IMG/VR virus record: IMGVR_UViG_3300021167_000098
Span: 1-64,000 of that record
DNA: 64,000 nucleotides
Direction: 5' to 3' (one strand)
Source: a virus
Taxonomy: Duplodnaviria > Caudoviricetes
Under the pieces are notes generated by a model. That model did no database searches. It was not told the origin of the DNA and saw nothing but the letters and a program-made list of their open reading frames with translations. The translations under genes were made by a program, and so were the position numbers. Of this stretch, positions 8,245-44,288 are shown one piece after another; positions within the stretch are counted from its first letter, which is position 1, and each line of letters starts with the position of its first letter.

Positions 8245-8268
8245 GTTGTAGTTTAATAAGTGTGTTTT

Positions 8269-8296: not shown

Positions 8297-8317
8297 ATTA
8301 ACATAAAATAAAGAAAT

Positions 8318-9489: not shown

Positions 9490-9494
9490 ACAAT

Positions 9495-10781: not shown

Positions 10782-10783
10782 AC

Positions 10784-11161: not shown

Positions 11162-11188
11162 AAACTTGTTTTTTATGTTAATAATTGT

Positions 11189-11221
11189 AGAAAGGATACT
11201 GTCATGGTATCCTTTCTTTTT
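11189..11221 (+). terminator. intrinsic terminator
   Basis: agaaaggatac-tgtcatg-gtatcctttct hairpin plus T tract. Confidence 0.8.
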
Positions 11222-11235
11222 AAAAAGAAAATATT

Positions 11236-11451
11236 ATGAATGATAGACATATTTATGAAGGTTGGACAGTACAATCATTTATTGATGAATTAGAACCACA
11301 ATTCAATATGATAAATCAAAACTCCAGTTGGCAGAAAGGATTTGAATCATATGATGATTTAAAAAAATGGTGTAAAGATAACCAACCTTATTATAAGAAA
11401 CATATACCAGAAGTATATAACCATTTTAAGAAGAAAGTAAAGTTATTATGA
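11236..11451 (+). CDS. hypothetical protein
   Basis: 71 aa ORF, ATGA overlap with the next gene. Confidence 0.7.
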   Translation: MNDRHIYEGWTVQSFIDELEPQFNMINQNSSWQKGFESYDDLKKWCKDNQPYYKKHIPEVYNHFKKKVKLL

Positions 11452-26274: not shown

Positions 26275-28029
26275 TTATTCTTTAATTTGATTTACAGCAG
26301 CTGCTCCAACTACTCCAGGTAATAATTTTATTAGTGCTCTTTTAGTTTCTTGTGAAGTTTCTTTTTTGAAAAATCTATTAAGATCTTGTACATTAATCAA
26401 TTCATCTATTAGTTCATCTGTTGGATATTTAAATTGACCCATAACTTCTTCAATTGTTGCATTCTTTCTGACTAATTTTGCTCTTTTAAGATATTTATCA
26501 ACTAAATTTTTTCTAGCAACCATTAATTCAGAATGTAATTCCATTGGAGATGCTTCCCAAGTTGATACTCCTTTCTTAGGTTCAACCATAGCATCAGCAA
26601 ACAATCTACCTGTTTCTGTATCTTTGTTAGCTGTAAAGTATGGATTTACATCATCTCCATTTTTTGTTAAAATACCACTCCAATCATTTACATGAGAGTT
26701 GTATGTATCTATATTTCTTTTCATACCTAATCCACCAATTTTTTGCATTGAATGCCCAAGTTCATGTGTAGCAATATCACTAATAAGTTCTGGTGAATAT
26801 TGAGCTAAACCTTTATTTCTAAGTGTAATACTTTCATTATGATTTGTGTTCACCCCACCTATTCTGTCTTTATTTTTTAATATATAGTCTCTAGTATCTT
26901 CTGTTAAAGATTTATCTAATTGATTAGTTCTACTTGAGGTTAATATATTATTAGCTTCTTTTACAACTTGGTTATTTTCTAATTGTTCAAGAGGTCCGTT
27001 TTTAATTTGTTTTACTTTTAAAGTGTTATCTGAAATTGTTGGATTATGAAATTTATTATTATTATATAAATCTTCAATTTTTTGTGCTACATCCCCTTTT
27101 AAATTACCATTTTGATCATACACCCATTTATCTACAAAATCTAAACCTTCTTGAAAAGCTTTATCTTGTTTTATTTTAGATATATCTCTTTGCGCTTTTG
27201 TTATAGGAAATATTTCACTAAATGATCTACTCTCTTTAGACATAAGTTCTTTAACTCCAGCTTGTATTCCATTAATATGATCATTAAGAGAACTATTAAA
27301 ATTAGAGGTTTTATTATTTACTTTATTAATAACTCCTTCTAATAAATTTTCTTTTGGTATATTTTTTATAACATCATCAGTGTGTTCTAATACTTCATTA
27401 ATTCCACTCATGGCTTTAGCTCCCTTGGCTATTGGAATATTTAAAGGGTCTAATACAACATCTTGTCCTAATTCAGATCCTAATACTGTACCTACTATTC
27501 CTGCTCCCCCAGGTAAGTTACTAGCTGCATCCATTACTTGATCAAACTTAGTTCCTTTAAGAGCTTTAGAAGGTTGAGTTTCTCTACCATCACTACCTAT
27601 ATAAGTAGCAGCAGCTTGTGGTAAAGATAATGCAGCACCTATACTTTGTCCTATTGCACCCATAAAACTTTCTGCTTTTGGAATATTATTTCCCCACATT
27701 TTGAAGAATCTACCTACAGTTGGTTTAGCAGCATCTTTAATAACAACTTCATCTAATTCAGGAGCTACTAAAGTGTCATTACCTATATCTTCCATAATTA
27801 CAGGTTTCTTTTTACTGGGTGGATCTCCAGGAATTACTGTACCATCTTCAGCATAATCTTTAAGTTGAGGTAATGTTTGAATATATTTGTCTATTTCAGA
27901 ATGTTTACCTAATAATATTCTATTTTTAACCCAATCTCTTTTATTTGCTGGAACAATAGTGTGATCTCCATGTGAATTTTTGAGAATTAATTCCATTCCC
28001 TCACCTTCAATTTTAATACTTTTAAACAT
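26275..28029 (-). CDS. putative ejection protein with C-terminal zincin-like metallopeptidase
   Basis: 584 aa; HELGH (26752-26766) and downstream ELHSE; TAATG-coupled to the vRNAP gene. Confidence 0.72.
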   Translation of the reverse strand: MFKSIKIEGEGMELILKNSHGDHTIVPANKRDWVKNRILLGKHSEIDKYIQTLPQLKDYAEDGTVIPGDPPSKKKPVIMEDIGNDTLVAPELDEVVIKDAAKPTVGRFFKMWGNNIPKAESFMGAIGQSIGAALSLPQAAATYIGSDGRETQPSKALKGTKFDQVMDAASNLPGGAGIVGTVLGSELGQDVVLDPLNIPIAKGAKAMSGINEVLEHTDDVIKNIPKENLLEGVINKVNNKTSNFNSSLNDHINGIQAGVKELMSKESRSFSEIFPITKAQRDISKIKQDKAFQEGLDFVDKWVYDQNGNLKGDVAQKIEDLYNNNKFHNPTISDNTLKVKQIKNGPLEQLENNQVVKEANNILTSSRTNQLDKSLTEDTRDYILKNKDRIGGVNTNHNESITLRNKGLAQYSPELISDIATHELGHSMQKIGGLGMKRNIDTYNSHVNDWSGILTKNGDDVNPYFTANKDTETGRLFADAMVEPKKGVSTWEASPMELHSELMVARKNLVDKYLKRAKLVRKNATIEEVMGQFKYPTDELIDELINVQDLNRFFKKETSQETKRALIKLLPGVVGAAAVNQIKE

Positions 28030-31000
28030 TATTTCTTTTTTGAATCATTTAAATAAATTCTATCATAAATTTCAAAAGGTTTTCCTTGTTCTGGAATAGG
28101 AAATTCTAATGACGGATTTAAATTCCACTTATCATAGTAACTAATATATTCTCCCTTTTCATCCTTACCCTTACTAATTTTAAAGTTTCTAAATACTAAA
28201 TTACTAGGTTCTTGTACTTGTTTGCTTTCACCTTGTTTTAATGTAGTTCCTTCTTTTTTAATAAAATCTACAATTTCAGGATACGATTTACTCACACTTA
28301 AATAATTAGCTTTAGGATCTGTTGAAGTACTTGGCTTATGATTAGAAACCTCAAAAGTATTAAATCTTTGTGGATTTCCAGTATATAATGCCCAAGCATC
28401 ATCAGCTCTTTTAAAATGAGGTTTTGCTTCTTCTTTATAACGAGCCTGTTCTTTAGCTGAAAGTTTTCTAAAATCTTCAGGTTTACCTTTATACGTTATT
28501 GGTAATGGATTCTCTACATTAATATCTCTATTCTTATCTGTAGTAATTAAACCTTTGACACCTTGCATTATTGGAGGCATTATGGAATTATAGGGAGTTA
28601 CATTTTTATAAATTTTATCTCTCACTACTTTATTAACTCCTAACTGTTCATCTAATATTCCAGTTTCCTTTAATTGTTGAGCTGGAGTACCTTTATAATT
28701 AGTATTGTATCTATCTCCATTGTATAAAAATTGTTCATCTCCAGACTTACGAGCTTTAGCATAGGCTGAATCAAAATCTTTTTCATTAGAAAAATCATTT
28801 AATCCTATATTACGAGGATCTAATTTATCTTTAATATTATCTATAATATCTTTTTTAGGTTTAATAGTTTGATTAAATTCTGCTATTGGTCTAACAATAT
28901 TAGTGGACTCAGAAACCATAATATTATCTTTAATCATTCTATCTAATCCTGGAATTTTCTTTTTAGGAGGATTAGTAGGATCTTCTCCATCAGGTATGAT
29001 CATACCATCCTCAGCTTTAGGGATCACTAATCCATATTCAGCTTTAATTTGAGTTTTACCATTATGCATAGTAACTCCATCTTTTCCTATAGATAGATCA
29101 ACTCCTCCTTTGGCATGTGTTGGGTATCCTTTCAAGTCCTTAACTATTTTCCAAGTTCCACCTTTAGTAAAACCTTTAGGTTTCATACCATCAGCAGCCT
29201 TAAATAAACCTCCTCCAGGTCCACATTTTTTTATTTCAAGATCATTAAATATATCTGATGCTTGTGTTTTAATTGATTCAAATGTATCATTTATTAATTT
29301 TGGACTATCTCCTGAATTATCAATTCCCAATTCTAATAATTTAACATCTAAATACTCTTGATGTTGTTTTGGTAACTTAGCTTTTAATCCTCCTTGTCCA
29401 ATTCTATAATCTCCAATTTTTAAAGTTTTAAAATTAGATAAGTCTTTTTTAATCTGATTAATTTCATCATCTATTGTTTGTTTAAACAAATCAAAGTTAG
29501 AATCTGTCCAATTAGTGCCATAAGCACTCATTGTTGATATTGGATAAGCATTATTTAATCCTCTAATAACAGCACTTGTTGGATTATTAATAGATCCAAA
29601 ATGTAATGGTTTATTAGTTTGAGATTTATATTTTTTATAATACCAAGTATTACTGTCAATATTATCAGAAGCTGCATTAGGAGCTGATGTTCTTTGTGCA
29701 TTATCTGTAAATAAATACATTGATTCATTATCTTCAGCAACAGAATTTCTTGTATATCTAGTATTTATTACTTGTATATTAGAAGAATTATTTGATGTAG
29801 ATTCTATATTTACTTTTTCTTGAGGATAAGTATTCTCAAATAAATCTACTATTGCTTGTTGTCCAGCTTCATTTATATTTCTAGTACCAACTCCTGCAAA
29901 CCTTTCTGATAACACTGGAATATCTATTTTAGTTATTGTTCCTTTAGTATATTTATACCATTCTTGTCTTGACTGATCAAAAGCATATACTGGTTTACCC
30001 ATATCATCTGCCATAATCATAGCATAAGCTGTTCCACCTTTAGGTATAACTTTAAATGTTTTCTGACCTATAACCTTCATTCCTTGTTTAGTCTTATCAA
30101 ATACAGTCTCAAATCCTTCAATTATTGCATATACAGAATCTCCAGCTTTAGCTTGTAAGTAATCTCTTCTAACAAGTTTAGCTGAATACCTCTTACCTTT
30201 ATCTTCATTATCTAAACTGATTACTTGTCTTCCAAGATAATTAACTGCTCTTACATATGCTTGTTCAACTTCTTCTGCTTGTACAGGAGTTAACTTATCA
30301 TAAGTCTGAGGAGTATAATCTACTGTTCTTATACCAAACTGTTTACCAACCTTTTTAAACTCTCTATCAGTTCCAGGTGCATCCCCTGAATAAATTACTT
30401 TATCTTGTGTTTTGGATGCCCAGATTGTACTTGTTTTATTCAATTCTACTTCTTTATTATCACTTACAACATTGTAAGATTCAGCTAATGTATGTGCTAA
30501 AACATTATTAGGATTAACTGTAATACCAAATGATTCAAGTATAGTTCTGAATAATCCTTCAAATGCCTCTACAATTCTTTCTAAGAAAGATTTAACTTCT
30601 GGTTTAGATGCCTTAATCTCATTAAGAACAGTCTGGAAGTTATTATCTGACCAAGCCATTGTAACAAACTCCTGAACATTAACTAATCCATAATACTTAG
30701 CTTTCATCTGTGGTGTAATACCAGAGGTAGTTGTATTAATAGATTTGTTATTAGGAGATTCTAATACAAAGTTGATTGTATCCTGCAAAGATAAGATTTT
30801 ATTAGCATTTTTAACTTCATCTTGCTTTAATAAATTCATATAATTTCCAAGAAACTCAGTAAGTTCTTTTTTATTATTCTTTCTAGCAGCCTTTAAAGCA
30901 TCTTTTCTAAGTATATCTAATCTTTTAATTGATATTCTTTGAGCTTCAGTTACAGAATTAGGATCTTTCATGTATCTTTCAACAATAGGATTAAATGCTG

Positions 31001-34000
31001 AATGCCAAGACTCATGTATAATTCCAGATATAATATCTTCTCTATTAGATTTAGAGTTAAATTTATTATCTAAGTTAGGATTAATAACAATTTTATCTTC
31101 AGATGCAATGTATCTACCTGTATTTTTAGCTTCAGTATCTACTGATATTTTAGCAGTAGGAGAAACAATTTGTCTAAGGATGTCTGCAATCTCTGTTTGA
31201 TTACTATTACCATAAGTTTTAATATTCTCTAAAGCATCTGTTAAATCAGTTTCTGACTCAGGTATTAATCTATTAGCCATTTCTTCATTACCCAACTCAT
31301 ATGCATTTACAGAAGAAGTATCTACAAATCCAGTTGATGAATTCATATTTCTACTTTCATATGTTCCAAGTAAAGGAATAGCACTTAATATATATTGTCC
31401 AGTCTTAGGATCTTTATTAGTCTTAAACAACATGGTTGTATCAAACTCTCCATTAACTTCATTCTGAGGATCAGCAAATGTAATATAGTTAAACTTATTA
31501 GGTTCTCTATCTTCATCTAATTCTGTATAGATTGGGTTAGATGTACTACTAAACCAAGCATTCTTCATAGCTGAATTTCTTGCTATCTCATTACCAATAC
31601 TTGTTTTTTCTTCATCAGATAAGCCAGGTTTCTTTAACTCAGATTGTAACTGAAGTATTTTATCCAAATAAGTATTATAGTTTTGTAATTCAATAGTACT
31701 TGTATAAGATCTTCTCATTACTTTCTTAGGAGCAAAGCTAGGATTATGTCTTATGAACTGCTCCATAAAATCAGCATATTTAATATTATCATCCATCATA
31801 TCCATAGTAGCTTTATTAAGATATGCACTAACTACATTAGATTGTTGTACAGATGCAGGAATATACATCATAAAGTTATTAGCTGATTGTATTGGATTGG
31901 TTAAGAAAGAATAAGTAATTAAATCATTACCAAATCTTCTTAATTCCTCATCACTACTATTCAACATTTTAAGTAATGAAACTGTATTCAAGTACTCATC
32001 TTGTCTTTGTGACTTACCAGCAGAATATTTTAATCTTCTTTCTTTATTAATCTTATCATATTCTACTACAATACCTTTTAATAAATAATCTCCAGATGTA
32101 TTCTCTGCTTGATATTTCTTTAATCTATCAAAGATGTTATCATCTCCTTCTTTAAGTCTTGCTCTTTCTGCAACTACATCTCCACTTGAATATATATCAT
32201 TATTAGCAAATATGTAAGTTTTATAGAAATTAAATATATTTCTATAATCTTTTTCATCAAGTGATTTATTCTGTCCTTTAAAGTAATCAGTTACTTTATT
32301 GAATAGATTTCTGTAAGGAAACATTTTACCAAATAAGTTATTGGCAAATATAACTCCTTCTTTCATAGCTACACCATATTCAGAGTCTTCTAATGATTGA
32401 ACATTGTTTAACTTAATACCAAAGTAAGAGGATTCATAATTTCCATCTTGTATTCTGTCCTTAAACATTCTTTCTTTCATCAAAGACTCAATAAATGATT
32501 TACCAATACCTTTAGTTGAACCATCTATTGCCTTTTGTGTACCAGCAACTATCTGACCTACTTCATCTAAAGCTAAGAAACCTAAGAATGCATTAAGTTG
32601 AACTCTATAATATTTATCTAATTGTTCAGGAGTAGCTGAATCCAAATCTAATTTCTTAGCTGAATTAAGTTCAATAACTCCTGGTATAACTATATTTTTA
32701 ATTAACTCCATATGAGAAGGTATCTTAATATATTCATCTGCTTTCTGATGTATTAATTTATAATACTTCTCAATAATAGATGATTTTAATTTACCTTCTG
32801 CATATCTACTGAATTTAGCTTTAGAAAACTGATTAAAACTGGCAGCTTTAGATTCTATAAATTCATGTATAATATCTTGTTCCACTAATGCAACTACATG
32901 GTCATTTGCTACTGATCCTATTCCTGGTGTTCCACCTTCCTGATATCCACCTTTAGAACTATCAGATAACATTAATAATGCATTTGCAGCATTAAATGTA
33001 TCCTCATTTAAATTAAGTGCTCCTAATCTACCATTCTTAGCATTATCTACTGATTCAGACTGAATATTCTGTAAGTTTTTATGTATCCTTCTATCTTCAT
33101 TATCATATTGACTTCTAGCATCATTACCTAAAATATCAAGATTTAATACCTTACCTTTAGATTTAATTTTAATAGATAAGTCTTGTCCTTCCTGAAGTAA
33201 AGTAATACCTTTATTCTGGATCATTGCATTCATTACAATACCATTTGCTTCAATAGCAACACCTTGTTTTCCTGCTCTGTTTTCCAAATATGTATCTCTA
33301 TTAAATTTAGGAGATATTAATCCAGCAGCTTCATTCTTACTAGTTCTCTTTTCAAATTCTAATCTTAAATCATCCATATCTAATGACTCAGCTATTCTTT
33401 CAAACATATTTTCATCTGTAAGAACTTCCCAGTGTAAATCAAAATATTGATTCTGTAAAGATTTAATATCCTGACCAACTATTGAAGTAGGATCAAAATC
33501 TTTAGTTGCTTCATTTAATTCTGAATACAACTGATCTAATTCTTGTTGAATAGCTTTACCTTCAGTTGTATTTGCAAATTTTCTCTTTTCTTCTCCAATT
33601 AACTTTAAGTCACTATCTATATCTTTAACTCTTTGATCTAATTGTTTAAGTTCATATAAGTTTCTATCTATATCAACCTGATCATCAGCAGTTATTTCTG
33701 TTCCCCAATAAGATTGTATTGCATCTTCATACTCTTTAATAGAGTCAGTTGTATCTTGTCTTAATTGTTTAATAGCAGACACTTGTTCAAGAACTCCTTC
33801 TCCAACTAATCTGGTAAGTTCATCAGCTCTTCTCTTTTTAAGTTCATCTATTCTTGGAGTAAATGGATCTGTTAAAACTTTTCTAGCTTTGTATATTGCT
33901 TTAGGATTAGGATCATATTTGCTTATTTGTCCTGTCTTAGAATTAACTACATAGTTCCACATGTAAGTATATAACTTATCCACATCAAAGTCAGAACCCA

Positions 34001-37000
34001 TCTGTACTGAAATCTCAGCAGGAACAACAATAGTATTACCCATATACTCTGGTAAAAAACCAAGTATTCTAATAGGTAACATAGAGTTAGGTCCTTGTCC
34101 TGGAATCCTACCACCAATAAGGTTAAGTAAACTTGGATCTATTTTAGACATATCCAAGTAAGTTCCTGTCTCATCTGTAATAGTATAATCATTTAAATTT
34201 AATTTATTCTGAACTCCATCCTTACCTTTATTAGATAAGAATTGGAAAGGAACATATACTCCAGCTCCTACTATCTTACCATCTTTTTTAGTTATAAATG
34301 GTAAATCCATAGACATATTATGTCCTGGAACAGTAACTATATCTCTTTTAAAATCATCAGGTATTTGATCAGGAGTTATTACACCACTTGCAGATGTTTG
34401 TACATAAGAATGTCCATGGACTTTCTGCAATATAATTCCTGAAACTAATGATGCTAATACAGATTCATACTTCTGAGAAGCAGTATTAAAGAACATAGGG
34501 TCTAACTTACCATCAACTATTCTTAATTGATCAATAACATTTTTACTAAATCCTCTACTAAATGCTTCTTTTTTAAGAAGTTCTACTACTTTATTAAGGT
34601 CTTGAAACTCATATGTCTCACCATCCTCCTGAAGTTTAGCACCAAATCTCTTTAAGAAATCAGCTTTAGCTTCTCTGAACATTGCTTTTTTAACTTCAGC
34701 TTTTCTTCCAAGTACATCTGTTTTATCATGTTGGGCATATCCTTCAGTAAATAGTTTATCCATCTGAGACATAATAAGAATCTTGTTCTTTAATTCATCA
34801 TATGGTATTTCCTGTTGGATAAAGAAACCTTCTCTTGGAAGTTCTACTGGATATAAAGCATCTATATTAGTTATATTTCCTTTAGCATCCCAGACATTAG
34901 CTATTCTTAAAGCTCCTCCTTTATAAGCAGATTCATAAGCAAGTCTATCAATTGGTGTTTCTCTTAATACATCTCCTTCATAAAACATACCTTGTTTTAA
35001 CTTAGCTACTTCAAGTCCTTGAAACAACTGATGTATAATAGGCATAGATGAAGACTTAATATATACTTCAACTTGTGTAGCATAATTAGCTCCTCCAACT
35101 CCATTAGATTTAAACTGAACATTAGATACTTGTACTGGTTTCATCATGCCAAATACAAACTTTAATTCTTCATCTGTAAGTTTATATTGATCAGGTACTT
35201 TCTGATTCCATTTTAATCTATCTTGATATCTTGCTTTAGGTAACATACTCTTATACATATCCATAGTAAGATCTTGAGTACCTTTAGCAAACATAACATG
35301 TAAATGTTCTTCAAAACTTGAATACTCTAATGCATCAGCTACATTTATTTTTCCTCTTCCTTTACCATCCATTCCATACATTCCAGCTAATCTCTCATTA
35401 GCCATAATATCTTTGTTTATAGAAGCTCTATAATTATCTGATATTGCAGCAGAATGATAAGTCTTTTGTGTTTCAGGAGTAAAGGTATCTGTCTTCTCAT
35501 CATATCTGAGAATATCAAAAGAAGGCAATGTACCAGCAGCTAAGTTCTTAGCATTTCTTTTAACTGCATCTATATTAGTAGCATGAATAAAGTTATTTAC
35601 TTCTTCAGAAGTTAAATCAGAAAGTAATTTATTAGATGGACCTTTATAGAAAGATGCAGGATCTCCAGCAACTAATTGATAATATTCAAGTGAAGCAAAA
35701 GTAGAATAATAAATCATCTCTCTTGCAGCTATCTCAACAATCTGAGCATCAGTAAATGTGATTAAAGCATTTAATTTCTCACTAAATACATTCTTACCAT
35801 TACCAATAACTTTAGCTTTCCATTGAGAATCCATTCTTTTAATTCCAATATCATATTTATTCCATAAATCTAATTTGTTTTTAAGCTCTTCATTAAACTT
35901 ATTAGCTGCTAACATACTAACAAATCCAAAATCATTCTTAGGAATAGCAGTATCAAATTTTATTTTACCATTATCCAGATATATAGGATTAGTTTTCTCA
36001 TAGTTATTATCAATAATCTTTTCTATAAATTCATCAATGGTCATATTCCATTTTGTAGATGAAGCATTAGTTTCTCCAGATGCCATCATAACTAAATGTG
36101 CTAAATCTGGTTGATTTAATACTTTAGCATGTTCTTCCTGATTATTCATAAATTGTTTATAGAAAGACTCCTCACTATCTGAATCATATCCAGAGAAGTA
36201 TCTTTCAGAGTAAGTAGGTAAAATATTTTTAATTTCTGCTTCAAAAGAAGTAGAATCATCAAGTGCTGTAATATCTACAAGACTTACTATCTGCTCTTTA
36301 AGTTTTACTTTAGCAATTTGTATATTAGCAGTAGGTAATAAATAAAAATACTTGTATCCATTGTCATATTTAGTGTTTCCTGTTAAACCATCAATAGTCT
36401 TACTATCAGCTATTCCTGTACTAAGTCCATTGAACTGTCTCATCCTTTCAGATTCAATTTCAACAGATTTAACAAGATAAGCAGAGTTGTTAGCTATCTG
36501 ATCTTCAAGGAATGTATTAGATTCTCTATTAGCTGATAGACTTGTCTTAGCAAATAAACTCTTATCTGAGTTAGTTGGTATCTGAGCAAATCTTCTTTTA
36601 TTACCATTGTTTTGTATTCCTCCAAGTTCTTCAGATTCTAATTCAGCAGGTTTTAATTTATTTGATTCTTCAAATATACCTTCTGTTTCTTCTTTTAAAG
36701 CATCCATTAACTCCACATCATAAAGAGAGTCATTAACTAATTCAGATCTTTGTGCAAAAGAAGATGCATTTTCTATATCATAGTTACCTGATTTAATTCT
36801 ATCTACAACATTAGATAATGGATTAGGGATAGTATATGCAAATTTAATATTACCACTTGCACTATAAGCAGATTCAGAATCTATATTACCTCTTTTATAA
36901 GATATAAACTTACCTAAGTTACTTAGATAGTTACCTCCTTCTGTAAATGGATTGTATTTCTCCATAGAGACATAGTTAATAGCTGTCTCTGGATCTTCTC

Positions 37001-40000
37001 CAATAAGCTCTGTCTTAGTAGAAGGTATATTTCCTATATTAGAAAATAATACTCCAATAACACCAGATTTATTATTAAAGACATGACTCATATTATTTCT
37101 TTCCCATCCTTCAGCTATCTTAGCATACTCATATGGATAATCAATAATAGATTTAATCTCATCAGTTACAACATCTATTCCTAATTGATTAAGTAATCCA
37201 GCTATTTGTTCAGCATAAACAGCAGAGTTTGGAACTTCACCATATACTTCTTCAAATTCATAATATTGATTAGTAAGCTCTATATAATCTTCTTTAATCT
37301 TGTTAACTTTATCTGCATTAATTAGATAAGGTTCTGACTCTGAGTTGATTACCATATTGTTATTAGGATCTTCAACTATATCCATAAATGCACTTTGCCA
37401 TTTAGATACCATCATTCTACCTCCACTAACTCTATCAGCATCAATTATATTAGCTGAATATTCTCCTCCTTTAGAGTTCCAAAGCATAATACCAGTCTTA
37501 TTCTTATGCAAATTAAAGACTGTTCTAAATTCATTCTTGGCACTCATATCCCATTTCTCTATATCATCAGCAACTAAATTTAATACTCTAGACTGATTCT
37601 TCTGCTCTCTAAGGAATTTAACTGCTTCTCCTACTGTCATATATGGTTTATTAGCTAAAAGCTGTCTAATCAATCCATATGTGTTCTCAGGATCAAGATA
37701 TCTATCAAATCCCATTTGTGTTTCTCCATCTCTTATTAAAGCAAGTTTAGATTTTAATCTAAAGGATGCTCTATCTCTATCATCTATATCAAAGATAGAA
37801 GTATCATATCTTTCAACAGCTCTACCATTCTCACCAGAGAAATCCAAAGCTTCCATTTCATCTATTGCTAAATTACCTACTTGTTTACCAGTTATTTTAA
37901 GACCCATAGCCTGAACCTTAGCAAATGCTAAACTCTCTAACTTATTGTAATAAGAAGGCATATCCTTTAATATTGGATTAGTTTGGTTAGGAATATATTT
38001 TTCAAAATAATATTTCTTAACACTAGCTAAGTTATCACCTATATTTTTAATAGGAGCACTTTTAGCAGTACCATTAAACCTAGTCATTATTCTAGCTGCA
38101 AAGTCATTAACTAAATCATCTTTTAATGAATCAGTCATACCTGGATAATCAATAGTATATGTATCTAATAATGCTTTATTCTTATCATCATCTACAATAA
38201 TAGATTCATAATCTTCTGTTGCAATAGAGAAATCATCATCAGGTACAGGTTTAGATTTCTCTTCTGTAGCTGAAGTATCAGTATTTGTAAGATTATTTAA
38301 AGCAGCTAATTCAGCATTACTTTCTTGTTCAATCTTTTTACTTAAAGCTCCTTGACCATAAAATGATTTAGCATCATATATTACATAAAATGGTGCAACT
38401 TTAGTATTACCTATAATATGATTACTTACTCGAACACCTTTTACATTTGGGTTAGACTTTTGAAAATCTGTAAATAACTCCATAGCTGCTCCAGGTACTT
38501 CAGATAAAACATCATTAGTATCATGAATCTCAGAAAATATATAACCTTGTTTTTTTAATTCTTCATATACTTCTTTTTCAGTTTTTGAAGCATTTATTTT
38601 AACAAAATCAGCATCATTGACTTCACCTTGTATTGGTTTACCATATCTACTAACTAGAAATGAAGTGGTATTTGATGATGCGTTTAAACCATCACCAAAT
38701 TGACTAACTTGTTTATTCCCTCTTTGAAAATTATTAAAGTTAAAGTCTTTAGTATCGACATTTGTATGATGATACATAGGTTTGACATTTGCTAACCTTT
38801 CTTTCTTTTTTTGTAGTATATCAGCTTTTTGAACTTCTTTATTAGCCTCTTGAGTGGTTGTTCTTCCTAAAGCAGCTAATTCTGCATCATATTTATCATT
38901 GATTTTAAATCTTTCTCCTGCTATAAGCCCTTCATAAGAATCAATTCTATTACCTGTAACTAGCTGCCTTACCCCAGTTCTTTTAATTTCACCTTCTGCT
39001 TGTTTTTTTAATTTATTTAATTCGGATGAGTATCTTTGCTCATTATTATTTAATTCTTCTCGTCTTCTTCTTTCTATATCAGCTTTTTTATCTTGTTCAA
39101 ATTGATTAGATTTAGGTTGTTGTTCTAATGCTTTTAATTCTGCATCATATTTAGCATTGATTTCTTCCAAATATAATTTGGCATTTTCAAAAACTTCTGT
39201 ATATGTTTCCTTAAATTCTTTAGCCCTTTTATAACTATCTTTATTAAGCTTTCCTCCAGGTTCACCTAAGCTAATATTTTCATGTTTTCTAAGACTATTT
39301 ATTAAATGTCCTAAATCATTTACATGAAGTAATTTTTCTACCCATTTTTCTTTAGTTAATTTATTTTTATCTATTTCAGGTAGAAGTTCAACTACATCTT
39401 CTAATTCTTCTTGTCTTCTTCTAGCTATATCTTCAATTATATTAATTGCAGCACCAGGATCTAATCTTAGAGGAGCATCATGTTTCTCTCTTAACCATTC
39501 AGCTTCTCCTTCTTTATATTCAGAAGATTCTTCAATTGCTTTAATATCTGCTTCTGCATTCATAGCTGCATCAAAGTCAGAATTATCCACTATTGAATCC
39601 CCCATTTGTAATCCATAATCAAGATTAAATGTAGCTTGTTCATGGAATATCCATTCTCCATTAGGAGCTTTAGTTGCAAGAATATCAGTAGCTGAATTAT
39701 CAGCAAACATAGCCAAAGGAGATTTAACTACTTTCTGTAAGACTCCTTTGTTTAATTTAATAGTTTCTATGTCAACTTTAGAATTAGTATTAATCTTTAA
39801 TACATTCACCTTAGCATCAGCAATATAAGCTGATATAGCACTCTTGATACTCTCAGTTAATTTATTATCTATTAATGCATCAGGCTTAACAAAATCATTT
39901 TTAGTTGGTTTCTTATTCTTATGTTTGAATACAATTTGTCTTTCACCAGTAGATTTATCTTCACTTAAATCTATATGATCTGCTATTGGTAACTTAGTAT

Positions 40001-43000
40001 CAGAGTTTTCATATTCTTGCCCCCATACAGTATTTAATAACTTCATAGCAGCTTGGCTATCTAGCTTTCTTGTAATAGGTCCTTTAGTTAAATAATCCTC
40101 TATAAAAGCATAAACTAAATCATGATCTACCTTATCTACTTTAACAAGAACTCCCATAGTTACACTATCTTCTAGTGTACTTCTTTTCATAGGAAGAGAA
40201 AGGACATTAAATTTACCTTTCTTCTTACTTTCATATTGTCTTACTTGAACACCAGTATCTTTAAGGAACTTAGAAACTCTTACTAAATTAGTATTAGGAG
40301 TTGTTTCTGTTTCATTAGATACTAATCTTGCTGGTCTTCCTGAATTAATAGACTTAATTTTAGTGCGTGGTCTTGCAATTCCAGCATTAATATCTGCTAT
40401 AACTCTTGATCTGTTCTGATAGAGATTAATTAACTCATCAGTAGCCATATTAAAATCTCTGATAACAGTTTTATCTTCTTTCTTAGCAGTCAACATTCTG
40501 GTAAAAGGATTCTTATCCTTATTGTTCTTAAATGGTGCAGCAATTAATGTAGATATTTTATTATAACTATTACCATTTGCCTTATTAGGATCACTTACAT
40601 ATGCTTGAATAGCTGCAAGAACTTGTAATCCTCTATCATTAAGGATCATATATTTGTTCTCAGCATCTGATTTAGTAGGATCTTCCTCTGAGAATAATCC
40701 TGGAATACTTCCATCAGTTGCAAGAATAGATGCTATAGTAGGAACATATGCTTTATTAACATTCTGTTTATCTCCTTTAATAATTATTTCAATTGGAACA
40801 TCATGTGTATCATAATTACCATCAGTAATTCTAAAATAACCTGGATCACCAACTAAATACTCTTGAGTATCAATTGGCTTTAATGTTCTGGTATTGTTCT
40901 TATTCTTTACTCTACCATTAGTTGATTTAACATACTGTCTTGATAAGTAACTAACAGTTGTAGAAGGAGTAAATAACTTATTCTTTTCCCATTCATCTTC
41001 TATGATAATAGTAGGTTCAACTGGAGGTATAGTAATATCTTCTACAGGTTCAATCTCTTGATCAACTGCTACATTACCTTTAGGTTTCTTGCTTACATTC
41101 TTAGGTTTAGGTTTTGTTTCTATATTAACAATAGGTTCAATATCCCATTCAAATACTGGTGCTTTCATAGGAGAAGTACTTCCTGGTAAGAATCCACCTA
41201 TTGTACCATCCTCTTCTGTTTCTTCAAACTCCTCCTCTTCAAATTCTTCTTCAACAGGAACTTCAGTATGCATGGATTTAAGCATTTCCATTAACTTAGC
41301 AACATACTCTTGTTCAGTAGATGCTTCTACAAATCCTGCCATGAATGCATCTTTAAATCCAGTCTTAGTTACATTACCTTCATCATCTACTTGTGATAAA
41401 TAAGGTAACTCATCTTCTGTTCTACCATTAACTGTATATTGAATTATTGCATCATCATCAACAGATGCAGAATTAATATAAGCATAGTTTGTTTCTCCAT
41501 CTTTATTTTTAAACTTAAAGTATCCATTTCCTCTAACAGCCTCATTCATAAATGGACCTAAAATAAGACTTTCTTTTTGTTTAGTTAATTCTTCAGAAGC
41601 TTTATTTAATGTTTCAATATTCTTTAATTGCTCTAAAGTATGTAACTTAAATTGTAATTGTCTTACTTGACCTAATAAATCATTCTTAGCAGCTGTGTTA
41701 ATTGATTTCTTAGAAGATGCATCTTTCTTACCTACTCCATCAAATCTTGTTTTAGAGTTCACATCTTTAACAGCTCCTTTGATTTCATCAGCAAGTTCTT
41801 CTAACTTATTAGAAGTTATCTTTTCAGCATTCTTAGATATAAAAGTATTTATTCTATCTTTCCAATATCTGTATTGTGCACTATTAAGATAAGTTTCTTC
41901 TTCAGTGTTTTTCTTTTCTGCTCTATCAAGCATTTCTGTTTGATCTCTAACTGCCTGTAACTCAGGGTCATTTAGAAATTCAGCAGCTTTTTCTTTATTT
42001 GTTTTATCAAGAGTTTTTAATTCTTCTTCTCTTATAATAAATTTATCTAATTGTCTAATATCATGAGAGTTCATAGACAATGGATCTTCAGATAGTTTCT
42101 TTTTTCTATCTGTTAGATTTCTATATACAATCTGATCAGCTTCAGATAATCCTATAGGATTAATCTTACCTTCAGATATTTCATCAATACTTCCTAAATC
42201 AACATGATCTGGATTAATAATCTTCTGAGCTTTGTTGTATTCAGCTATCTCATCATTAATTCTTGTTTTAACTGATTCAGATTTCTTATTAACATTCTCA
42301 AATCCTCTTTTAATAATCTTTTTATTCTCTCCAACAAAGAATTTTCTTTCTCCTAACTGAGTATCTTTATGTCTATTCCAACTAGTTTCAATGTCAGTTA
42401 ATCTTTCTAACATTTCCTTAGCCTTAGCTCTGGATTCTGGAGTAACTTCTCCATCTACTAAATTAGCAGCTTGTGGAGTGCCATCAGCTATTTCTTGAAT
42501 ACTTTCTCTAAAGTTAGCAAGAGTTCCTTTCTTTAAATTATCCATTGCTGCCTTAGCAAATAGATTATCTTTAATAAGTTCTTGAGTTACTGTATCATTT
42601 TCAAATACAGCCTTTTCATAAACTTCATGAGCATCTAATAGATTATCAAATTTATTCTTTAATAATTCTTGGTTCTCTGATACTTGAGCTTGTTGTGCTT
42701 CATAATGTCCTTTAAGAGTATTACCTATTTCAGCTTTAATTTGTGCAGCCTGAGTTCTTAATATCTCTTTATTCTCTTCAATTGGTTCAGCTTCTATCTG
42801 TTCATTGATAGCAGTAAGCTGAGCATTTAATCTTTTATAATTCTTATTATCAGCAACTTTACCTGGAATATTACCTATTGCATTTTGAAATCCACCACCA
42901 AAGAAACCCATCATACCTTCAAAGATATTCTGGTCAGTAAATGCATAACCTAATACAGCAAGTGGACCTCCATCAGCTTTATCTTTATCAACAGCTAATT

Positions 43001-44288
43001 TAGTAAAATTTTCATTTCCTTCATGATCTTTATTCTCTCTGATTCTGGATTGATTCATAATATTATCTTCCAATCCTCCTTGAAACATCTCTTCTCCTGC
43101 TTCACCCATAGATAACATAAATGGATTTTTAGATCCATTCCATGCTGCTTTCCATACATCTTTTTTCCATATCATCATCTCTGATGGTTTAGGAAAATAT
43201 CTTGATTTATCAGTAAGGATTTGTGCACCTTTGGTTGGTTTACCAAAGATAGTTTTCATTTCCCACATGTCTTTGACAATCATCAACATGTTCTGATTTC
43301 TCATTTGATCAGCAACAGCAGAAGCTTCTTTTCTAATGTATGCTTCATCTGTCTCACCAGCAGCTCTTAATTCAGCTACTTTCTGATCATAGACTTCCAT
43401 ACCCATTATAGTACCTTCCAATTGGTTTTGGATAAGACCAGCTGGTACACTTTTTGCCCATTCTACTAATGCAGCTCTTTTAGCTGGTTCAGCTATCATA
43501 CCTTCCATCAAAGCACCTGCCTTAGTAGATACTTTAGTTGCCATACTTTCTAGTATTGTACCAGCAGTTCCTTCAGCAGCTAATGCAGCTCTTGCACCAA
43601 TAGATAATAGTTTACCTGCTGCACCTAAACCAAAACTTATAGCTTTACCAGGAATAGCAAACTGTAATCCTGATTCAATAACTCCTTTAACACCTCCCCA
43701 AAACATAGAACTATCCATAGAAAGAGGATTGTTTGGATCTGAATAAACAGGTAATGCCTGATTAACATCAGCTTGTGCAGCAGCAAGATCTTCTTGTAAT
43801 GCAGTCTTTTCCCAATCTCTTGTTAATATGTTTGGTAAATAAGTGAACCCTTCAATACCTTTAATGACTCCATTAAGAGTACCTCCAACTACTGCATTTC
43901 TAGCTTGTTGCCAACCAGATTGTTCTTCAGATGCTTGTTTAGCCCAATCTCCTCCAGCATAAAAAGCAGCTTCATCACCTAATGCAGAATATGTTTTATA
44001 AGGGTCTATACCAAAATCAGTTGTTGCTGTACTATCCTGTCTATTAGCATATTGTGATTTAACATAATCATTTATTTCAGAAAATGATTTACCTGTTGGA
44101 TCATATGGAGGTGCAACTGGATTACCAGCTTTATCTACCATTTGTTTCTCAGGTTTAGGTTGCTTAATAATCTGAGGAGTAGCCATAGGTCTATTAACAG
44201 TTGGTGCTATTAATTGCTTAGACCCAGCAGTAGGTGTTACACCTTTACCTTGATTTTCTGGAGTAATAATTTTTTCTTTATCTGGCAT
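28029..44288 (-). CDS. giant virion-encapsidated DNA-dependent RNA polymerase polyprotein (crAss-like vRNAP)
   Basis: 5419 aa; RIPGQ...GSDFDVDKL catalytic DxDxD (33978-33992), SVDNAK motif; also zincin HESWH, SLOG-like and ART-like domains. Confidence 0.9.
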   Translation of the reverse strand: MPDKEKIITPENQGKGVTPTAGSKQLIAPTVNRPMATPQIIKQPKPEKQMVDKAGNPVAPPYDPTGKSFSEINDYVKSQYANRQDSTATTDFGIDPYKTYSALGDEAAFYAGGDWAKQASEEQSGWQQARNAVVGGTLNGVIKGIEGFTYLPNILTRDWEKTALQEDLAAAQADVNQALPVYSDPNNPLSMDSSMFWGGVKGVIESGLQFAIPGKAISFGLGAAGKLLSIGARAALAAEGTAGTILESMATKVSTKAGALMEGMIAEPAKRAALVEWAKSVPAGLIQNQLEGTIMGMEVYDQKVAELRAAGETDEAYIRKEASAVADQMRNQNMLMIVKDMWEMKTIFGKPTKGAQILTDKSRYFPKPSEMMIWKKDVWKAAWNGSKNPFMLSMGEAGEEMFQGGLEDNIMNQSRIRENKDHEGNENFTKLAVDKDKADGGPLAVLGYAFTDQNIFEGMMGFFGGGFQNAIGNIPGKVADNKNYKRLNAQLTAINEQIEAEPIEENKEILRTQAAQIKAEIGNTLKGHYEAQQAQVSENQELLKNKFDNLLDAHEVYEKAVFENDTVTQELIKDNLFAKAAMDNLKKGTLANFRESIQEIADGTPQAANLVDGEVTPESRAKAKEMLERLTDIETSWNRHKDTQLGERKFFVGENKKIIKRGFENVNKKSESVKTRINDEIAEYNKAQKIINPDHVDLGSIDEISEGKINPIGLSEADQIVYRNLTDRKKKLSEDPLSMNSHDIRQLDKFIIREEELKTLDKTNKEKAAEFLNDPELQAVRDQTEMLDRAEKKNTEEETYLNSAQYRYWKDRINTFISKNAEKITSNKLEELADEIKGAVKDVNSKTRFDGVGKKDASSKKSINTAAKNDLLGQVRQLQFKLHTLEQLKNIETLNKASEELTKQKESLILGPFMNEAVRGNGYFKFKNKDGETNYAYINSASVDDDAIIQYTVNGRTEDELPYLSQVDDEGNVTKTGFKDAFMAGFVEASTEQEYVAKLMEMLKSMHTEVPVEEEFEEEEFEETEEDGTIGGFLPGSTSPMKAPVFEWDIEPIVNIETKPKPKNVSKKPKGNVAVDQEIEPVEDITIPPVEPTIIIEDEWEKNKLFTPSTTVSYLSRQYVKSTNGRVKNKNNTRTLKPIDTQEYLVGDPGYFRITDGNYDTHDVPIEIIIKGDKQNVNKAYVPTIASILATDGSIPGLFSEEDPTKSDAENKYMILNDRGLQVLAAIQAYVSDPNKANGNSYNKISTLIAAPFKNNKDKNPFTRMLTAKKEDKTVIRDFNMATDELINLYQNRSRVIADINAGIARPRTKIKSINSGRPARLVSNETETTPNTNLVRVSKFLKDTGVQVRQYESKKKGKFNVLSLPMKRSTLEDSVTMGVLVKVDKVDHDLVYAFIEDYLTKGPITRKLDSQAAMKLLNTVWGQEYENSDTKLPIADHIDLSEDKSTGERQIVFKHKNKKPTKNDFVKPDALIDNKLTESIKSAISAYIADAKVNVLKINTNSKVDIETIKLNKGVLQKVVKSPLAMFADNSATDILATKAPNGEWIFHEQATFNLDYGLQMGDSIVDNSDFDAAMNAEADIKAIEESSEYKEGEAEWLREKHDAPLRLDPGAAINIIEDIARRRQEELEDVVELLPEIDKNKLTKEKWVEKLLHVNDLGHLINSLRKHENISLGEPGGKLNKDSYKRAKEFKETYTEVFENAKLYLEEINAKYDAELKALEQQPKSNQFEQDKKADIERRRREELNNNEQRYSSELNKLKKQAEGEIKRTGVRQLVTGNRIDSYEGLIAGERFKINDKYDAELAALGRTTTQEANKEVQKADILQKKKERLANVKPMYHHTNVDTKDFNFNNFQRGNKQVSQFGDGLNASSNTTSFLVSRYGKPIQGEVNDADFVKINASKTEKEVYEELKKQGYIFSEIHDTNDVLSEVPGAAMELFTDFQKSNPNVKGVRVSNHIIGNTKVAPFYVIYDAKSFYGQGALSKKIEQESNAELAALNNLTNTDTSATEEKSKPVPDDDFSIATEDYESIIVDDDKNKALLDTYTIDYPGMTDSLKDDLVNDFAARIMTRFNGTAKSAPIKNIGDNLASVKKYYFEKYIPNQTNPILKDMPSYYNKLESLAFAKVQAMGLKITGKQVGNLAIDEMEALDFSGENGRAVERYDTSIFDIDDRDRASFRLKSKLALIRDGETQMGFDRYLDPENTYGLIRQLLANKPYMTVGEAVKFLREQKNQSRVLNLVADDIEKWDMSAKNEFRTVFNLHKNKTGIMLWNSKGGEYSANIIDADRVSGGRMMVSKWQSAFMDIVEDPNNNMVINSESEPYLINADKVNKIKEDYIELTNQYYEFEEVYGEVPNSAVYAEQIAGLLNQLGIDVVTDEIKSIIDYPYEYAKIAEGWERNNMSHVFNNKSGVIGVLFSNIGNIPSTKTELIGEDPETAINYVSMEKYNPFTEGGNYLSNLGKFISYKRGNIDSESAYSASGNIKFAYTIPNPLSNVVDRIKSGNYDIENASSFAQRSELVNDSLYDVELMDALKEETEGIFEESNKLKPAELESEELGGIQNNGNKRRFAQIPTNSDKSLFAKTSLSANRESNTFLEDQIANNSAYLVKSVEIESERMRQFNGLSTGIADSKTIDGLTGNTKYDNGYKYFYLLPTANIQIAKVKLKEQIVSLVDITALDDSTSFEAEIKNILPTYSERYFSGYDSDSEESFYKQFMNNQEEHAKVLNQPDLAHLVMMASGETNASSTKWNMTIDEFIEKIIDNNYEKTNPIYLDNGKIKFDTAIPKNDFGFVSMLAANKFNEELKNKLDLWNKYDIGIKRMDSQWKAKVIGNGKNVFSEKLNALITFTDAQIVEIAAREMIYYSTFASLEYYQLVAGDPASFYKGPSNKLLSDLTSEEVNNFIHATNIDAVKRNAKNLAAGTLPSFDILRYDEKTDTFTPETQKTYHSAAISDNYRASINKDIMANERLAGMYGMDGKGRGKINVADALEYSSFEEHLHVMFAKGTQDLTMDMYKSMLPKARYQDRLKWNQKVPDQYKLTDEELKFVFGMMKPVQVSNVQFKSNGVGGANYATQVEVYIKSSSMPIIHQLFQGLEVAKLKQGMFYEGDVLRETPIDRLAYESAYKGGALRIANVWDAKGNITNIDALYPVELPREGFFIQQEIPYDELKNKILIMSQMDKLFTEGYAQHDKTDVLGRKAEVKKAMFREAKADFLKRFGAKLQEDGETYEFQDLNKVVELLKKEAFSRGFSKNVIDQLRIVDGKLDPMFFNTASQKYESVLASLVSGIILQKVHGHSYVQTSASGVITPDQIPDDFKRDIVTVPGHNMSMDLPFITKKDGKIVGAGVYVPFQFLSNKGKDGVQNKLNLNDYTITDETGTYLDMSKIDPSLLNLIGGRIPGQGPNSMLPIRILGFLPEYMGNTIVVPAEISVQMGSDFDVDKLYTYMWNYVVNSKTGQISKYDPNPKAIYKARKVLTDPFTPRIDELKKRRADELTRLVGEGVLEQVSAIKQLRQDTTDSIKEYEDAIQSYWGTEITADDQVDIDRNLYELKQLDQRVKDIDSDLKLIGEEKRKFANTTEGKAIQQELDQLYSELNEATKDFDPTSIVGQDIKSLQNQYFDLHWEVLTDENMFERIAESLDMDDLRLEFEKRTSKNEAAGLISPKFNRDTYLENRAGKQGVAIEANGIVMNAMIQNKGITLLQEGQDLSIKIKSKGKVLNLDILGNDARSQYDNEDRRIHKNLQNIQSESVDNAKNGRLGALNLNEDTFNAANALLMLSDSSKGGYQEGGTPGIGSVANDHVVALVEQDIIHEFIESKAASFNQFSKAKFSRYAEGKLKSSIIEKYYKLIHQKADEYIKIPSHMELIKNIVIPGVIELNSAKKLDLDSATPEQLDKYYRVQLNAFLGFLALDEVGQIVAGTQKAIDGSTKGIGKSFIESLMKERMFKDRIQDGNYESSYFGIKLNNVQSLEDSEYGVAMKEGVIFANNLFGKMFPYRNLFNKVTDYFKGQNKSLDEKDYRNIFNFYKTYIFANNDIYSSGDVVAERARLKEGDDNIFDRLKKYQAENTSGDYLLKGIVVEYDKINKERRLKYSAGKSQRQDEYLNTVSLLKMLNSSDEELRRFGNDLITYSFLTNPIQSANNFMMYIPASVQQSNVVSAYLNKATMDMMDDNIKYADFMEQFIRHNPSFAPKKVMRRSYTSTIELQNYNTYLDKILQLQSELKKPGLSDEEKTSIGNEIARNSAMKNAWFSSTSNPIYTELDEDREPNKFNYITFADPQNEVNGEFDTTMLFKTNKDPKTGQYILSAIPLLGTYESRNMNSSTGFVDTSSVNAYELGNEEMANRLIPESETDLTDALENIKTYGNSNQTEIADILRQIVSPTAKISVDTEAKNTGRYIASEDKIVINPNLDNKFNSKSNREDIISGIIHESWHSAFNPIVERYMKDPNSVTEAQRISIKRLDILRKDALKAARKNNKKELTEFLGNYMNLLKQDEVKNANKILSLQDTINFVLESPNNKSINTTTSGITPQMKAKYYGLVNVQEFVTMAWSDNNFQTVLNEIKASKPEVKSFLERIVEAFEGLFRTILESFGITVNPNNVLAHTLAESYNVVSDNKEVELNKTSTIWASKTQDKVIYSGDAPGTDREFKKVGKQFGIRTVDYTPQTYDKLTPVQAEEVEQAYVRAVNYLGRQVISLDNEDKGKRYSAKLVRRDYLQAKAGDSVYAIIEGFETVFDKTKQGMKVIGQKTFKVIPKGGTAYAMIMADDMGKPVYAFDQSRQEWYKYTKGTITKIDIPVLSERFAGVGTRNINEAGQQAIVDLFENTYPQEKVNIESTSNNSSNIQVINTRYTRNSVAEDNESMYLFTDNAQRTSAPNAASDNIDSNTWYYKKYKSQTNKPLHFGSINNPTSAVIRGLNNAYPISTMSAYGTNWTDSNFDLFKQTIDDEINQIKKDLSNFKTLKIGDYRIGQGGLKAKLPKQHQEYLDVKLLELGIDNSGDSPKLINDTFESIKTQASDIFNDLEIKKCGPGGGLFKAADGMKPKGFTKGGTWKIVKDLKGYPTHAKGGVDLSIGKDGVTMHNGKTQIKAEYGLVIPKAEDGMIIPDGEDPTNPPKKKIPGLDRMIKDNIMVSESTNIVRPIAEFNQTIKPKKDIIDNIKDKLDPRNIGLNDFSNEKDFDSAYAKARKSGDEQFLYNGDRYNTNYKGTPAQQLKETGILDEQLGVNKVVRDKIYKNVTPYNSIMPPIMQGVKGLITTDKNRDINVENPLPITYKGKPEDFRKLSAKEQARYKEEAKPHFKRADDAWALYTGNPQRFNTFEVSNHKPSTSTDPKANYLSVSKSYPEIVDFIKKEGTTLKQGESKQVQEPSNLVFRNFKISKGKDEKGEYISYYDKWNLNPSLEFPIPEQGKPFEIYDRIYLNDSKKK
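38298..39431 (-). repeat. three tandem in-frame units bounded by (KA)DI.RRR.EEL and IN.KYDAELAAL-type motifs
   Basis: 26/27 nt identity between 38877-38903 and 39135-39161; 19/20 between 38298-38317 and 38868-38887. Confidence 0.88.

Follow-up and report, generated by a model that had tools for sequence, protein, structure and literature searches.

The carrier protein and its genome

The window analysed here comprises positions 1 to 64,000 of the IMG/VR virus record IMGVR_UViG_3300021167_000098 (Caudoviricetes), which extends over 94.5 kb with an estimated completeness of 77%; it is AT-rich phage DNA with a GC content of approximately 29%. On its minus strand, the list of open reading frames (ORFs) and their translation identify a virion RNA-polymerase polyprotein of 5419 amino acids (aa; nucleotides (nt) 28029–44288), here called the carrier, whose N-terminal half contains an array of three in-frame units (residues 1620–1997). 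In each unit a cargo lies between an opening helix (O) and a closing helix (C), together called the brackets. The O/C helix pair is a lineage-wide module boundary around approximately 100 unrelated inserts of 9–400 aa, and the present work deals with its distribution, its DNA, its predicted structure and its possible function.

The metal-binding DxDxD motif of the two-barrel RNA polymerases is present in the carrier in the DFDxD form (GSDFDVDKLY, residues 3431–3440), with the catalytic motif GSDFDVDK at residues 3431–3438 and DFDVD encoded at nt 33978–33992 (minus strand), and it is shared by seven of eight relatives' genes, which were compared as DNA. A tblastn search with residues 2031–3900 yielded 125 phage records (best E value 9e-24, 24–27% identity), the matches being virion proteins of crAss-like, Bacteroides, Flavobacterium FpV4-type and Cellulophaga phages. 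By taking into account the DFDxD motif and this homology, the carrier is identified as a Crassvirales-type virion RNA polymerase polyprotein of an uncultured crAss-like phage, the source habitats being wastewater and aquatic. The polymerase-associated proteins of crassviruses are capsid cargo and partly unfold to exit via the tail (PMC10172136). By analogy with crAss001 and phi14:2 (PMC10172136), the carrier would be packaged in the virion and ejected into the host. It also contains a zincin-like HESWH motif. Scanning of the whole polyprotein with Pfam and PHROGs gave no match to brackets or cargoes, the sole match being a sub-threshold DUF7831 near the C-terminus, and neither brackets nor cargoes were matched when each unit was scanned separately.

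Layout of the three-unit array

The consensus of the opener is KKADIERRRQEEL, in hidden Markov model (HMM) form [IL]EAKKADIE[RK]RRQEEL, and that of the closer is INAKYDAELAALE, in HMM form KINAKYDAEL[AK]ALE. All parts of the array are on the minus strand. Unit 1 opens with DIARRRQEEL (O1, 39402–39431, HMM score 15.6 bits), which is joined to the end of a conserved upstream region, continues with a cargo of 80 aa (39162–39401) that is modelled as helical with low confidence (predicted local distance difference test score, pLDDT, 33–42), and ends with the canonical closer INAKYDAELKAL (C1, 39126–39161, 31.3 bits), which is helical with a pLDDT of 79–90. Linker 1, EQQPKSNQFEQDK, polar and with a proline (39087–39125), leads to the opener of unit 2, KADIERRRREEL (O2, 39051–39086, 25.2 bits). 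The 49-aa cargo 2 (38904–39050) extends O2 and C2 into two long helices with a low-confidence break between them, C2 being INDKYDAELAAL (38868–38903, 26.1 bits). Linker 2, GRTTTQEANKEVQ (38829–38867), separates it from unit 3, which consists of KADILQKKKERL (O3, 38793–38828), a cargo of 153 aa (38334–38792), predicted to be an α/β domain with an ADP-ribosyltransferase (ART) fold and containing three CG dinucleotides, and IEQESNAELAAL (C3, 38298–38333), which is detected by the junction profile described below (E value 1.2e-5) and is helical in the model (382–410). O3, which travels with cargo 3, and C3 are degenerate and fall below the HMM threshold; they are called brackets because orthologous domains in P0007, P0026 and other relatives have canonical ones.

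The initial annotation, made by reading the sequence, had described three in-frame units with nearly identical closers as DNA and with unrelated cargoes of 80, 49 and 153 aa. All openers and closers were indeed recovered at their positions in the translation of 28029–44288 (minus strand), a repeat search grouped openers and closers into two direct-repeat families of three copies each, and the sequences returned the same closer identities (26/27 between C1 and C2, 19/20 between C2 and C3); the cargo lengths were right and no mutual BLAST similarity was found among the three cargoes. Cargo 1 is an orphan, with no homologue among the 183 proteins collected, and the cargo 2 family is also present in P0009, P0030, P0085 and P0169.

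Distribution and syntax of the bracket pair

A first search with residues 1560–2040 of the carrier retrieved 29 giant proteins of 3000–7100 aa, most of which contain the same two peptides; these homologues carry NADAR, ART-PolyVal, PIF1-type helicase, SprT-like, DUF7831 and AAA_33 domains. A junction profile (A1), built from six closer-linker-opener junctions, identified 275 protein-cluster representatives at E ≤ 1e-3 among 1.84 billion proteins, and separate HMMs for O and C detected the motifs in 172 of the 183 collected proteins. Exactly one O followed by one C is found in 97 of these 172, and C followed by O in only three, although the search profile itself is a C-to-O junction. Transitions between adjacent motifs number 176 for OC, 53 for CO, 14 for CC and 11 for OO. 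Between an O and its following C lie 9–403 aa (median 84), and a C is separated from the next O by a short gap (median 10 aa). Inserts of at least 30 aa (n = 162) fall into 98 BLAST clusters, and ‘empty’ units, with a loop of just 9–25 aa between O and C, also exist, one of them in P0162 with nine loop residues. The residues D, I, R, Y, A, E and L are invariant across 130–146 distinct bracket copies. In the window the O and C HMMs match just this array, as the junction profile does in the 94.5-kb record, and such specificity, together with the 275 protein clusters elsewhere, places the pattern far beyond chance. Thus, motifs first noticed in a single gene recur in other proteins as ordered pairs, with varying identity and number of cargoes.

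The C-to-O linkers at 35 junctions of relatives are rich in Thr, Pro, Gln and Ser on inspection, and measurement over 30 residues on the outer side of each protein's first O and last C revealed enrichment in Thr, Pro, Gln and Glu with depletion of hydrophobic residues, which is the composition expected of flexible spacers between independently folding modules. The brackets lie 1280–3600 aa upstream of the polymerase motif in all 29 proteins that carry both, which confines the arrays to a single zone of the carrier. A tblastn search of 50,697 GenBank phage records with this region and with a five-unit array (from locus L005) gave no matches, so that the cassette array is, as far as these sequences indicate, specific to an uncultured environmental lineage. 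Among 13 other bracket-bearing proteins, Pfam gave just one NUDIX match and one weak ART-PolyVal match, neither of them between an HMM-detected bracket pair, and the cargo families are therefore still without annotation.

Two further observations were made on the relatives. Residues 1938–2050 of P0005 (L004) form a domain that ends with the closing bracket NKINAELKAL and has no recognisable opener, so that bracket loss or decay on one side can occur. On a metagenome-assembled contig from NCBI, a ClpP-protease-like fragment (L009:70–354) lies directly upstream of the bracket-bearing giant gene.

Exchange of cargoes between relatives

Protein P0003 (locus L002) is 91% identical to the carrier over 4400 residues. 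At the DNA level L002 is 99.4% identical to the window down to 39400, in the last codons of O1, where identity collapses, and 99.3% identity resumes at 38904, the first codon of C2. Between these positions L002 aligns just at the C1-linker-O2 junction (86%), both cargoes being unrelated. Cargo replacement with breakpoints in the brackets is thus seen for cargoes 1 and 2, with the left breakpoint in O1 and the right one in C2. The block formed by O3, cargo 3 and C3 (38830–38285) is 97–98.5% DNA-identical in L001 and L004, and approximately 94% identical in three copies in L003; the polymerase cores of L003 and L004 are approximately 25% identical in protein, and the L001 carrier was compared at its flanks alone. 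In these alignments, otherwise near-identical phages differ in cargo at the brackets, and otherwise very different phages share a near-identical cassette bounded by them. Cargo identity and number vary among relatives, which contradicts the possibility that all orthologues carry the same three inserts.

Public sequencing data lend independent support. Between 57% and 70% of the 31-mers of the region are found in 20 runs from 11 studies (wastewater, activated sludge, bioreactor, freshwater), and in four of these runs, from four studies, contigs cover both flanks with 95–99% identity. The same replacement of cargo 1 is seen in these data: an 86-kb contig of run X1 bridges 39162 to 39410 with 403 other letters in its place. 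Cargo 1 is uncovered by the contigs of all four runs, an uncovered stretch being by itself no proof of replacement. The bracket bins have 3–6 times the depth of the flanks (Logan contigs, four runs), and many contigs end at the bracket edges 39094, 39117 and 38868. The same breakpoints recur in independent data sets, namely L002 from JGI and the Logan contigs of X1 and X3.

A separate observation concerns L003, where the giant-gene region (L003:3371–6760) contains three tandem copies of a block of approximately 1.35–1.37 kb, near-identical over 300-nt stretches. The block holds the unit 3 cassette and a second unit, and its reading frame is interrupted, leaving ORFs of 195 and 368 aa. The triplication is either the product of real unequal crossing-over at brackets or an assembly or long-read error.

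Codon usage and CG content of the bracket DNA

Bracket DNA was pooled from the relatives' loci and 45 IMG/VR loci, and codons were counted over C copies from 40 loci. The Ile of the closer is encoded by the rare ATC in 35 of 45 copies, as compared with 8% gene-wide (P 4e-29), and the Leu by the rare CTA in 27 of 45, as compared with 9% (P 2e-17), values that overstate the case as the bracket copies lack phylogenetic independence. One Ala of the closer is GCA in 35 of 45 copies versus 34%. For the opener, ATA encodes Ile in 25 of 26 copies and GCT encodes Ala in all 26, and 13 of 29 copies have one and the same 33-nt sequence. Two invariant peptides of the same genes, GSDFDxDK and PFYVIYD, were taken as a control and exhibit ordinary synonymous variation. 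The uniformity of rare codons therefore indicates that the brackets are homogenised by frequent recombination or recent spread, or that they are selected as nucleotide sequence, and either reading fits their use as homology tracts. This conservation of DNA beyond the needs of the protein and the breakpoints within brackets fit the earlier idea that the brackets act as recombination handles.

The CG content of the array was also confirmed to be unusual for its genome. Five CG dinucleotides are found in the array block (38431, 38681, 38756, 39023 and 39061) and none from 28814 to 38430. The window as a whole contains 49 in 64 kb, as compared with approximately 1350 expected (observed/expected approx. 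0.04; 0.77 per kb), GC dinucleotides being normal. At the window rate, approximately 0.87 CG would be expected in 1134 nt, so that the five observed correspond to a Poisson P of approximately 0.0025. In all genomes where it occurs, the unit 3 cassette has 3–4 CG per 541 nt, observed/expected values among relatives ranging from 0.04 to 0.68, and it looks compositionally foreign in the genome of the window. The CG at 39061 belongs to a CGA codon by which O2 reads RRRR in the window. Nearly all other contigs have CAA (Gln, consensus RRRQ), with 39061 C>T in the contigs of four of four runs, and this CG is therefore a private substitution of the window's lineage.

Predicted structure of the brackets

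An AlphaFold2 model of residues 1600–2010, obtained with a 10-row alignment (mean pLDDT 72), has all brackets helical, cargo 3 as a confident α/β fold, helices 129–172 and 184–234 in the cargo 2 region and no resolved fold for cargo 1. Helix–helix contacts were inferred from solved folds that superpose on the model. Model residues 80–176, comprising C1, a five-residue turn and O2, superpose on antiparallel two-helix hairpins (Z 11, root-mean-square deviation (rmsd) 2.5 Å over 97 residues; 1.3 Å over 77), and C2-linker-O3 was modelled as a single long helix with lower confidence. The antiparallel stalk proposed from the sequence is thus matched by the model as far as the presence of helical hairpins is concerned, and departs from it in that O is not paired with the C of its own unit. 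Prediction of a complex between the O2 and C2 segments gave a score of 0.15, the mark being 0.34, a value that counts neither for nor against pairing. O and C of one unit would probably clasp as an α-hairpin, on the indirect grounds that lone O…C pairs dominate, empty units exist and the outer linkers are flexible, the model pairing C1 with O2 instead. If both types of contact exist, one may speculate that the array is an up-down helical stack with the cargoes at one end.

The third cargo

Cargo 3 modelled alone reached a pLDDT of 89 and a predicted template modelling score (pTM) of 0.83. Its structural matches by VIA include ParT (Z 7.5, rmsd 3.2 Å, 120 residues), NatT, RES toxins, MbcT, diphtheria toxin and PARPs, as well as 6kyf, whose PDB entry names it an anti-CRISPR protein. 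Chains of the ART superfamily make up nearly all of the top 50 VIA matches, and the call of the fold relies on the consistency of this list, as the Z values are only middling. Foldseek matched PARPs at E values of 0.02–0.3, and the nearest cluster of the ESM Atlas (TM 0.67/0.68 over 138 residues) includes ART-PolyVal members. The likeness of the third cargo to an ADP-ribosyltransferase, first suspected from a few residues, is therefore upheld at the level of the predicted fold: cargo 3 is modelled with the split β-sheet of ADP-ribosyltransferases, closest to ART-PolyVal. ART-PolyVal (PF18760) and RES/ParT-type domains have a similar predicted fold, but cargo 3 has no match to them at the sequence level; no ART family was found in Pfam even at E ≤ 10, and a cargo 3 profile run against PDB sequences gave just chance matches. 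Candidates for the catalytic triad are present in the right order, namely the His of YHHT, the Ser-rich NASS and the invariant Glu of QGE; by our reading, the position of the PARP catalytic Glu would be occupied by the Phe of PFYVIYD.

The cargo 3 domain is present in 27 of 29 relatives, with brackets around it in approximately one-third and plain low-complexity flanks in the others. The brackets are therefore separable from the domains that they enclose, and cargo 3 is, in this set of sequences, a conserved resident of the protein family and not a variable insert.

The best Foldseek match of cargo 3 is to a pre-ejectosome chain of cyanophage A4 (PDB 9k3a, chain B, residues 1418–1600 of the ejection protein). 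The main text of the paper describing 9k3a contains no word beginning with ‘ADP-ribosyl’ or ‘transferase’, and an ART-like fold, as suggested by the match to the model, may so far have gone unremarked in the A4 ejection protein.

Function of the bracket pair

The explanation that best accounts for these observations, to which we assign a probability of about 0.6, is that the bracket pair is a dual module boundary, serving both as a DNA homology tract for the in-frame exchange, duplication and loss of domains and as a helical clasp or spacer that isolates the insert. The 33–36-nt bracket sequences would be portable homology tracts at which co-infecting phages exchange, duplicate or delete domains with the reading frame kept. 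With O and C of one unit clasped as an α-hairpin, each insert would be a self-contained bead, able to unfold and refold alone while the polyprotein threads through the tail. The inserts would most likely be accessory host-takeover or anti-defence domains co-delivered with the polymerase, and it is in this sense that an effector role of the cargoes is inferred. Such a cassette-exchange architecture in polyvalent injected phage proteins is real and, apparently, undescribed.

Several points weigh against this explanation. Recent descent of all brackets from a common ancestor, and not selection for recombination, could be the reason why they share rare codons. The sole confident hairpin of the model is formed by C1 with O2 across the linker and not by O and C of one unit, and covariation between O and C within units is not significant (odds ratio 3.6, P 0.065), the comparison being between R/K after DIE and K/A after AEL over few junction pairs. 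Just one of the three cargoes has a recognisable enzymatic fold, and that domain is near-universal and usually bracketless, so that it can do without them. No cultured phage, cultured crAss-like phages included, was found to have the brackets by tblastn with the five-unit array, which deprives the explanation of an experimental anchor. Finally, repeats of approximately 30 nt could in principle create chimeric joins that resemble in-frame swaps in metagenome assemblies, from which most of the comparative data come; a chimera is unlikely at unit 3 because its brackets are degenerate and nearly unique, and the caveat remains for units 1 and 2.

A stronger version of the dual-boundary explanation can be put forward only tentatively, as we consider it somewhat less probable than not. 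It would see in the arrays a dedicated in-frame cassette-exchange system, the protein-coding counterpart of the integron platform, in which bracket DNA provides the recombination sites and the helices a universal clasp, and by which environmental crAss-like phages shuffle a common pool of injected domains, over 100 in number, with effector or anti-defence roles. A phage recombinase, or the opener's polypurine tract, might then promote exchange.

The main rival, which we regard as unlikely, takes the helices chiefly for a protein-level signal for binding or processing, recombination being incidental. They could bind a fixed partner, for example an ejection chaperone, packaged DNA, the portal or the inside of the capsid, or else the brackets would be cleavage sites for the embedded zincin or for another protease. 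Such a signal would account for invariance at the level of single residues (RRR, Y-D-x-E) around any cargo and for a conservation of amino acids, over 130–146 copies, that exceeds the needs of a plain structural hairpin. The consistent place of the arrays upstream of the polymerase core, the HESWH motif of the carrier, the ClpP-like fragment beside one relative's gene and the modelled pairing of C1 with O2 in place of unit-internal clasps also speak for it. However, it leaves the rare synonymous codons unexplained, other invariant peptides of the same genes varying freely. Cleavage would not require two different motifs in fixed order, and no partner was found. The absence of brackets from every cultured crAss-like phage implies that they are not essential for packaging or ejection throughout the order.

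A less probable rival takes the bracket-cargo-bracket unit as a selfish mobile element, inserted in frame and of no benefit to the phage, which spreads among giant phage genes because the linker region is permissive and tolerates it, much as the palindromic elements of Rickettsia are found inside coding genes. The uniform DNA of brackets in very divergent carriers does resemble recent spread, empty units exist, many cargoes are orphans without recognisable fold or family, and the tandem triplication of a block of approximately 1.36 kb in L003 would fit. Against it, the units are not accompanied by a transposase, a homing nuclease or terminal inverted repeats, and approximately 100 cargo families are kept open and in frame, which points to selection for the cargoes themselves, and a well-folded domain resembling an enzyme is found in at least one of them. 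The last rival, that the brackets are ordinary coiled-coil or linker segments and the swaps mis-assemblies of metagenomes at short repeats, gains some weight from the predominance of short-read assemblies in the comparative DNA, from the breaking of Logan contigs at brackets and from the inflation of DNA identity of any shared peptide in AT-rich genomes with strong codon bias, but it is largely refuted, and very improbable, given two motifs that keep their order strictly in 172 proteins, which come from numerous sources and independent assemblies, a retention of rare codons far above codon bias, unit 3 brackets too unlike the others to mislead an assembler, and breakpoints that recur in the independent JGI and Logan data.

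Other candidates were considered and rejected. An RNA hairpin between O and C coding DNA was ruled out by inspection, the opener being purine-rich and the closer not complementary to it. An intein was dismissed, as the inserts begin after …EEL and end before (K)IN…, with no conserved nucleophile in 132–146 distinct bracket copies. An integron was also discarded, the units being in-frame parts of one ORF and the bracket DNA having, by inspection, no attC-like imperfect inverted repeat.

Relation to known systems

In polymorphic toxins (CdiA with VENN, Rhs with PxxxxDPxGL, MuF-toxin fusions) a short conserved peptide and DNA motif at the border of the variable domain acts as a recombination site. 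They have one motif, a C-terminal variable domain and a linked immunity gene. The arrays differ from them in having two motifs, internal domains, tandem units and no immunity genes. Like integron cassettes, the arrays consist of units that can be exchanged, have conserved boundaries and lie at a fixed platform. Integrons, however, rely on an integrase, attI/attC sites and promoterless separate ORFs, whereas here exchange takes place in frame within one polypeptide, presumably by homologous recombination. No integrase family was found in a PHROGs scan of eight larger neighbouring ORFs, no systematic integrase scan of the record having been made. The term ‘integron-like’, used in the initial annotation, thus stands as an analogy only, with no integrase or attC-like site involved. 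As for the virion RNA polymerases of crAss-like phages (phi14:2 gp66; crAss001 gp47/gp49/gp50), the DFDxD motif is shared and homology is weak, and the bracket array was not found in the deposited phages (50,697 records).

The closest parallel in architecture is offered by the polyvalent proteins, very large virion-delivered proteins with a core enzyme and many small accessory domains, including ART-PolyVal, which are presumed to act in early host takeover or counter-defence (Iyer et al. 2017, PMC5512222). In both cases unrelated domains are found in one polypeptide with a content that varies between relatives, in the carrier an ART-fold domain and other inserts; judging from its sequence and model, the carrier has the polyvalent-protein architecture, with several unrelated effector-type domains that vary between relatives. 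The paper on polyvalent proteins describes no two-sided boundary motif (its text does not contain ‘linker’, ‘coiled’ or ‘shuffl’; PMC5512222), whereas the inserts of the present arrays are bounded by one nucleotide-conserved helix pair that coincides with recombination breakpoints. Literature searches for the motif strings KYDAEL and ERRRQEEL gave no results, and those on modularity or hypervariability of the crAss RNA polymerase gave nothing relevant.

The injection of multi-domain polyvalent proteins by phages is established, but it is not understood by what route the domain repertoires of such giants arise and are renewed. The present observations offer a testable rule, namely that a codon-conserved two-helix bracket marks sites of in-frame domain exchange. 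If confirmed, it would explain why the counter-defence functions that an abundant order of phages injects turn over rapidly, and would provide a sequence handle to catalogue approximately 100 or more small injected domain families, nearly all unannotated, as candidate anti-defence or host-takeover proteins. It would also provide a design, taken from nature, by which foreign domains could be built into a carrier that phages deliver in laboratory phage–bacterium systems.

Further observations on the window and its relatives

In L003, a GIY-YIG/NUMOD3 homing-endonuclease gene (L003:18624–19304) lies between two giant virion-protein genes, the downstream one of which has a weak ART-PolyVal match. 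In the window, the extreme avoidance of CG suggests CG-targeting host restriction or modification pressure. The few CG dinucleotides are clustered at 1–2000, 8000–12000, 24000–26000, 28113–28813 and 38431–39061, and these clusters may be recently acquired DNA. The cluster at 28113–28813 places six CG in the last approximately 260 codons of the carrier gene, which encode the variable C-terminal tail of the polyprotein, and thus forms a second compositionally foreign patch in the same gene.

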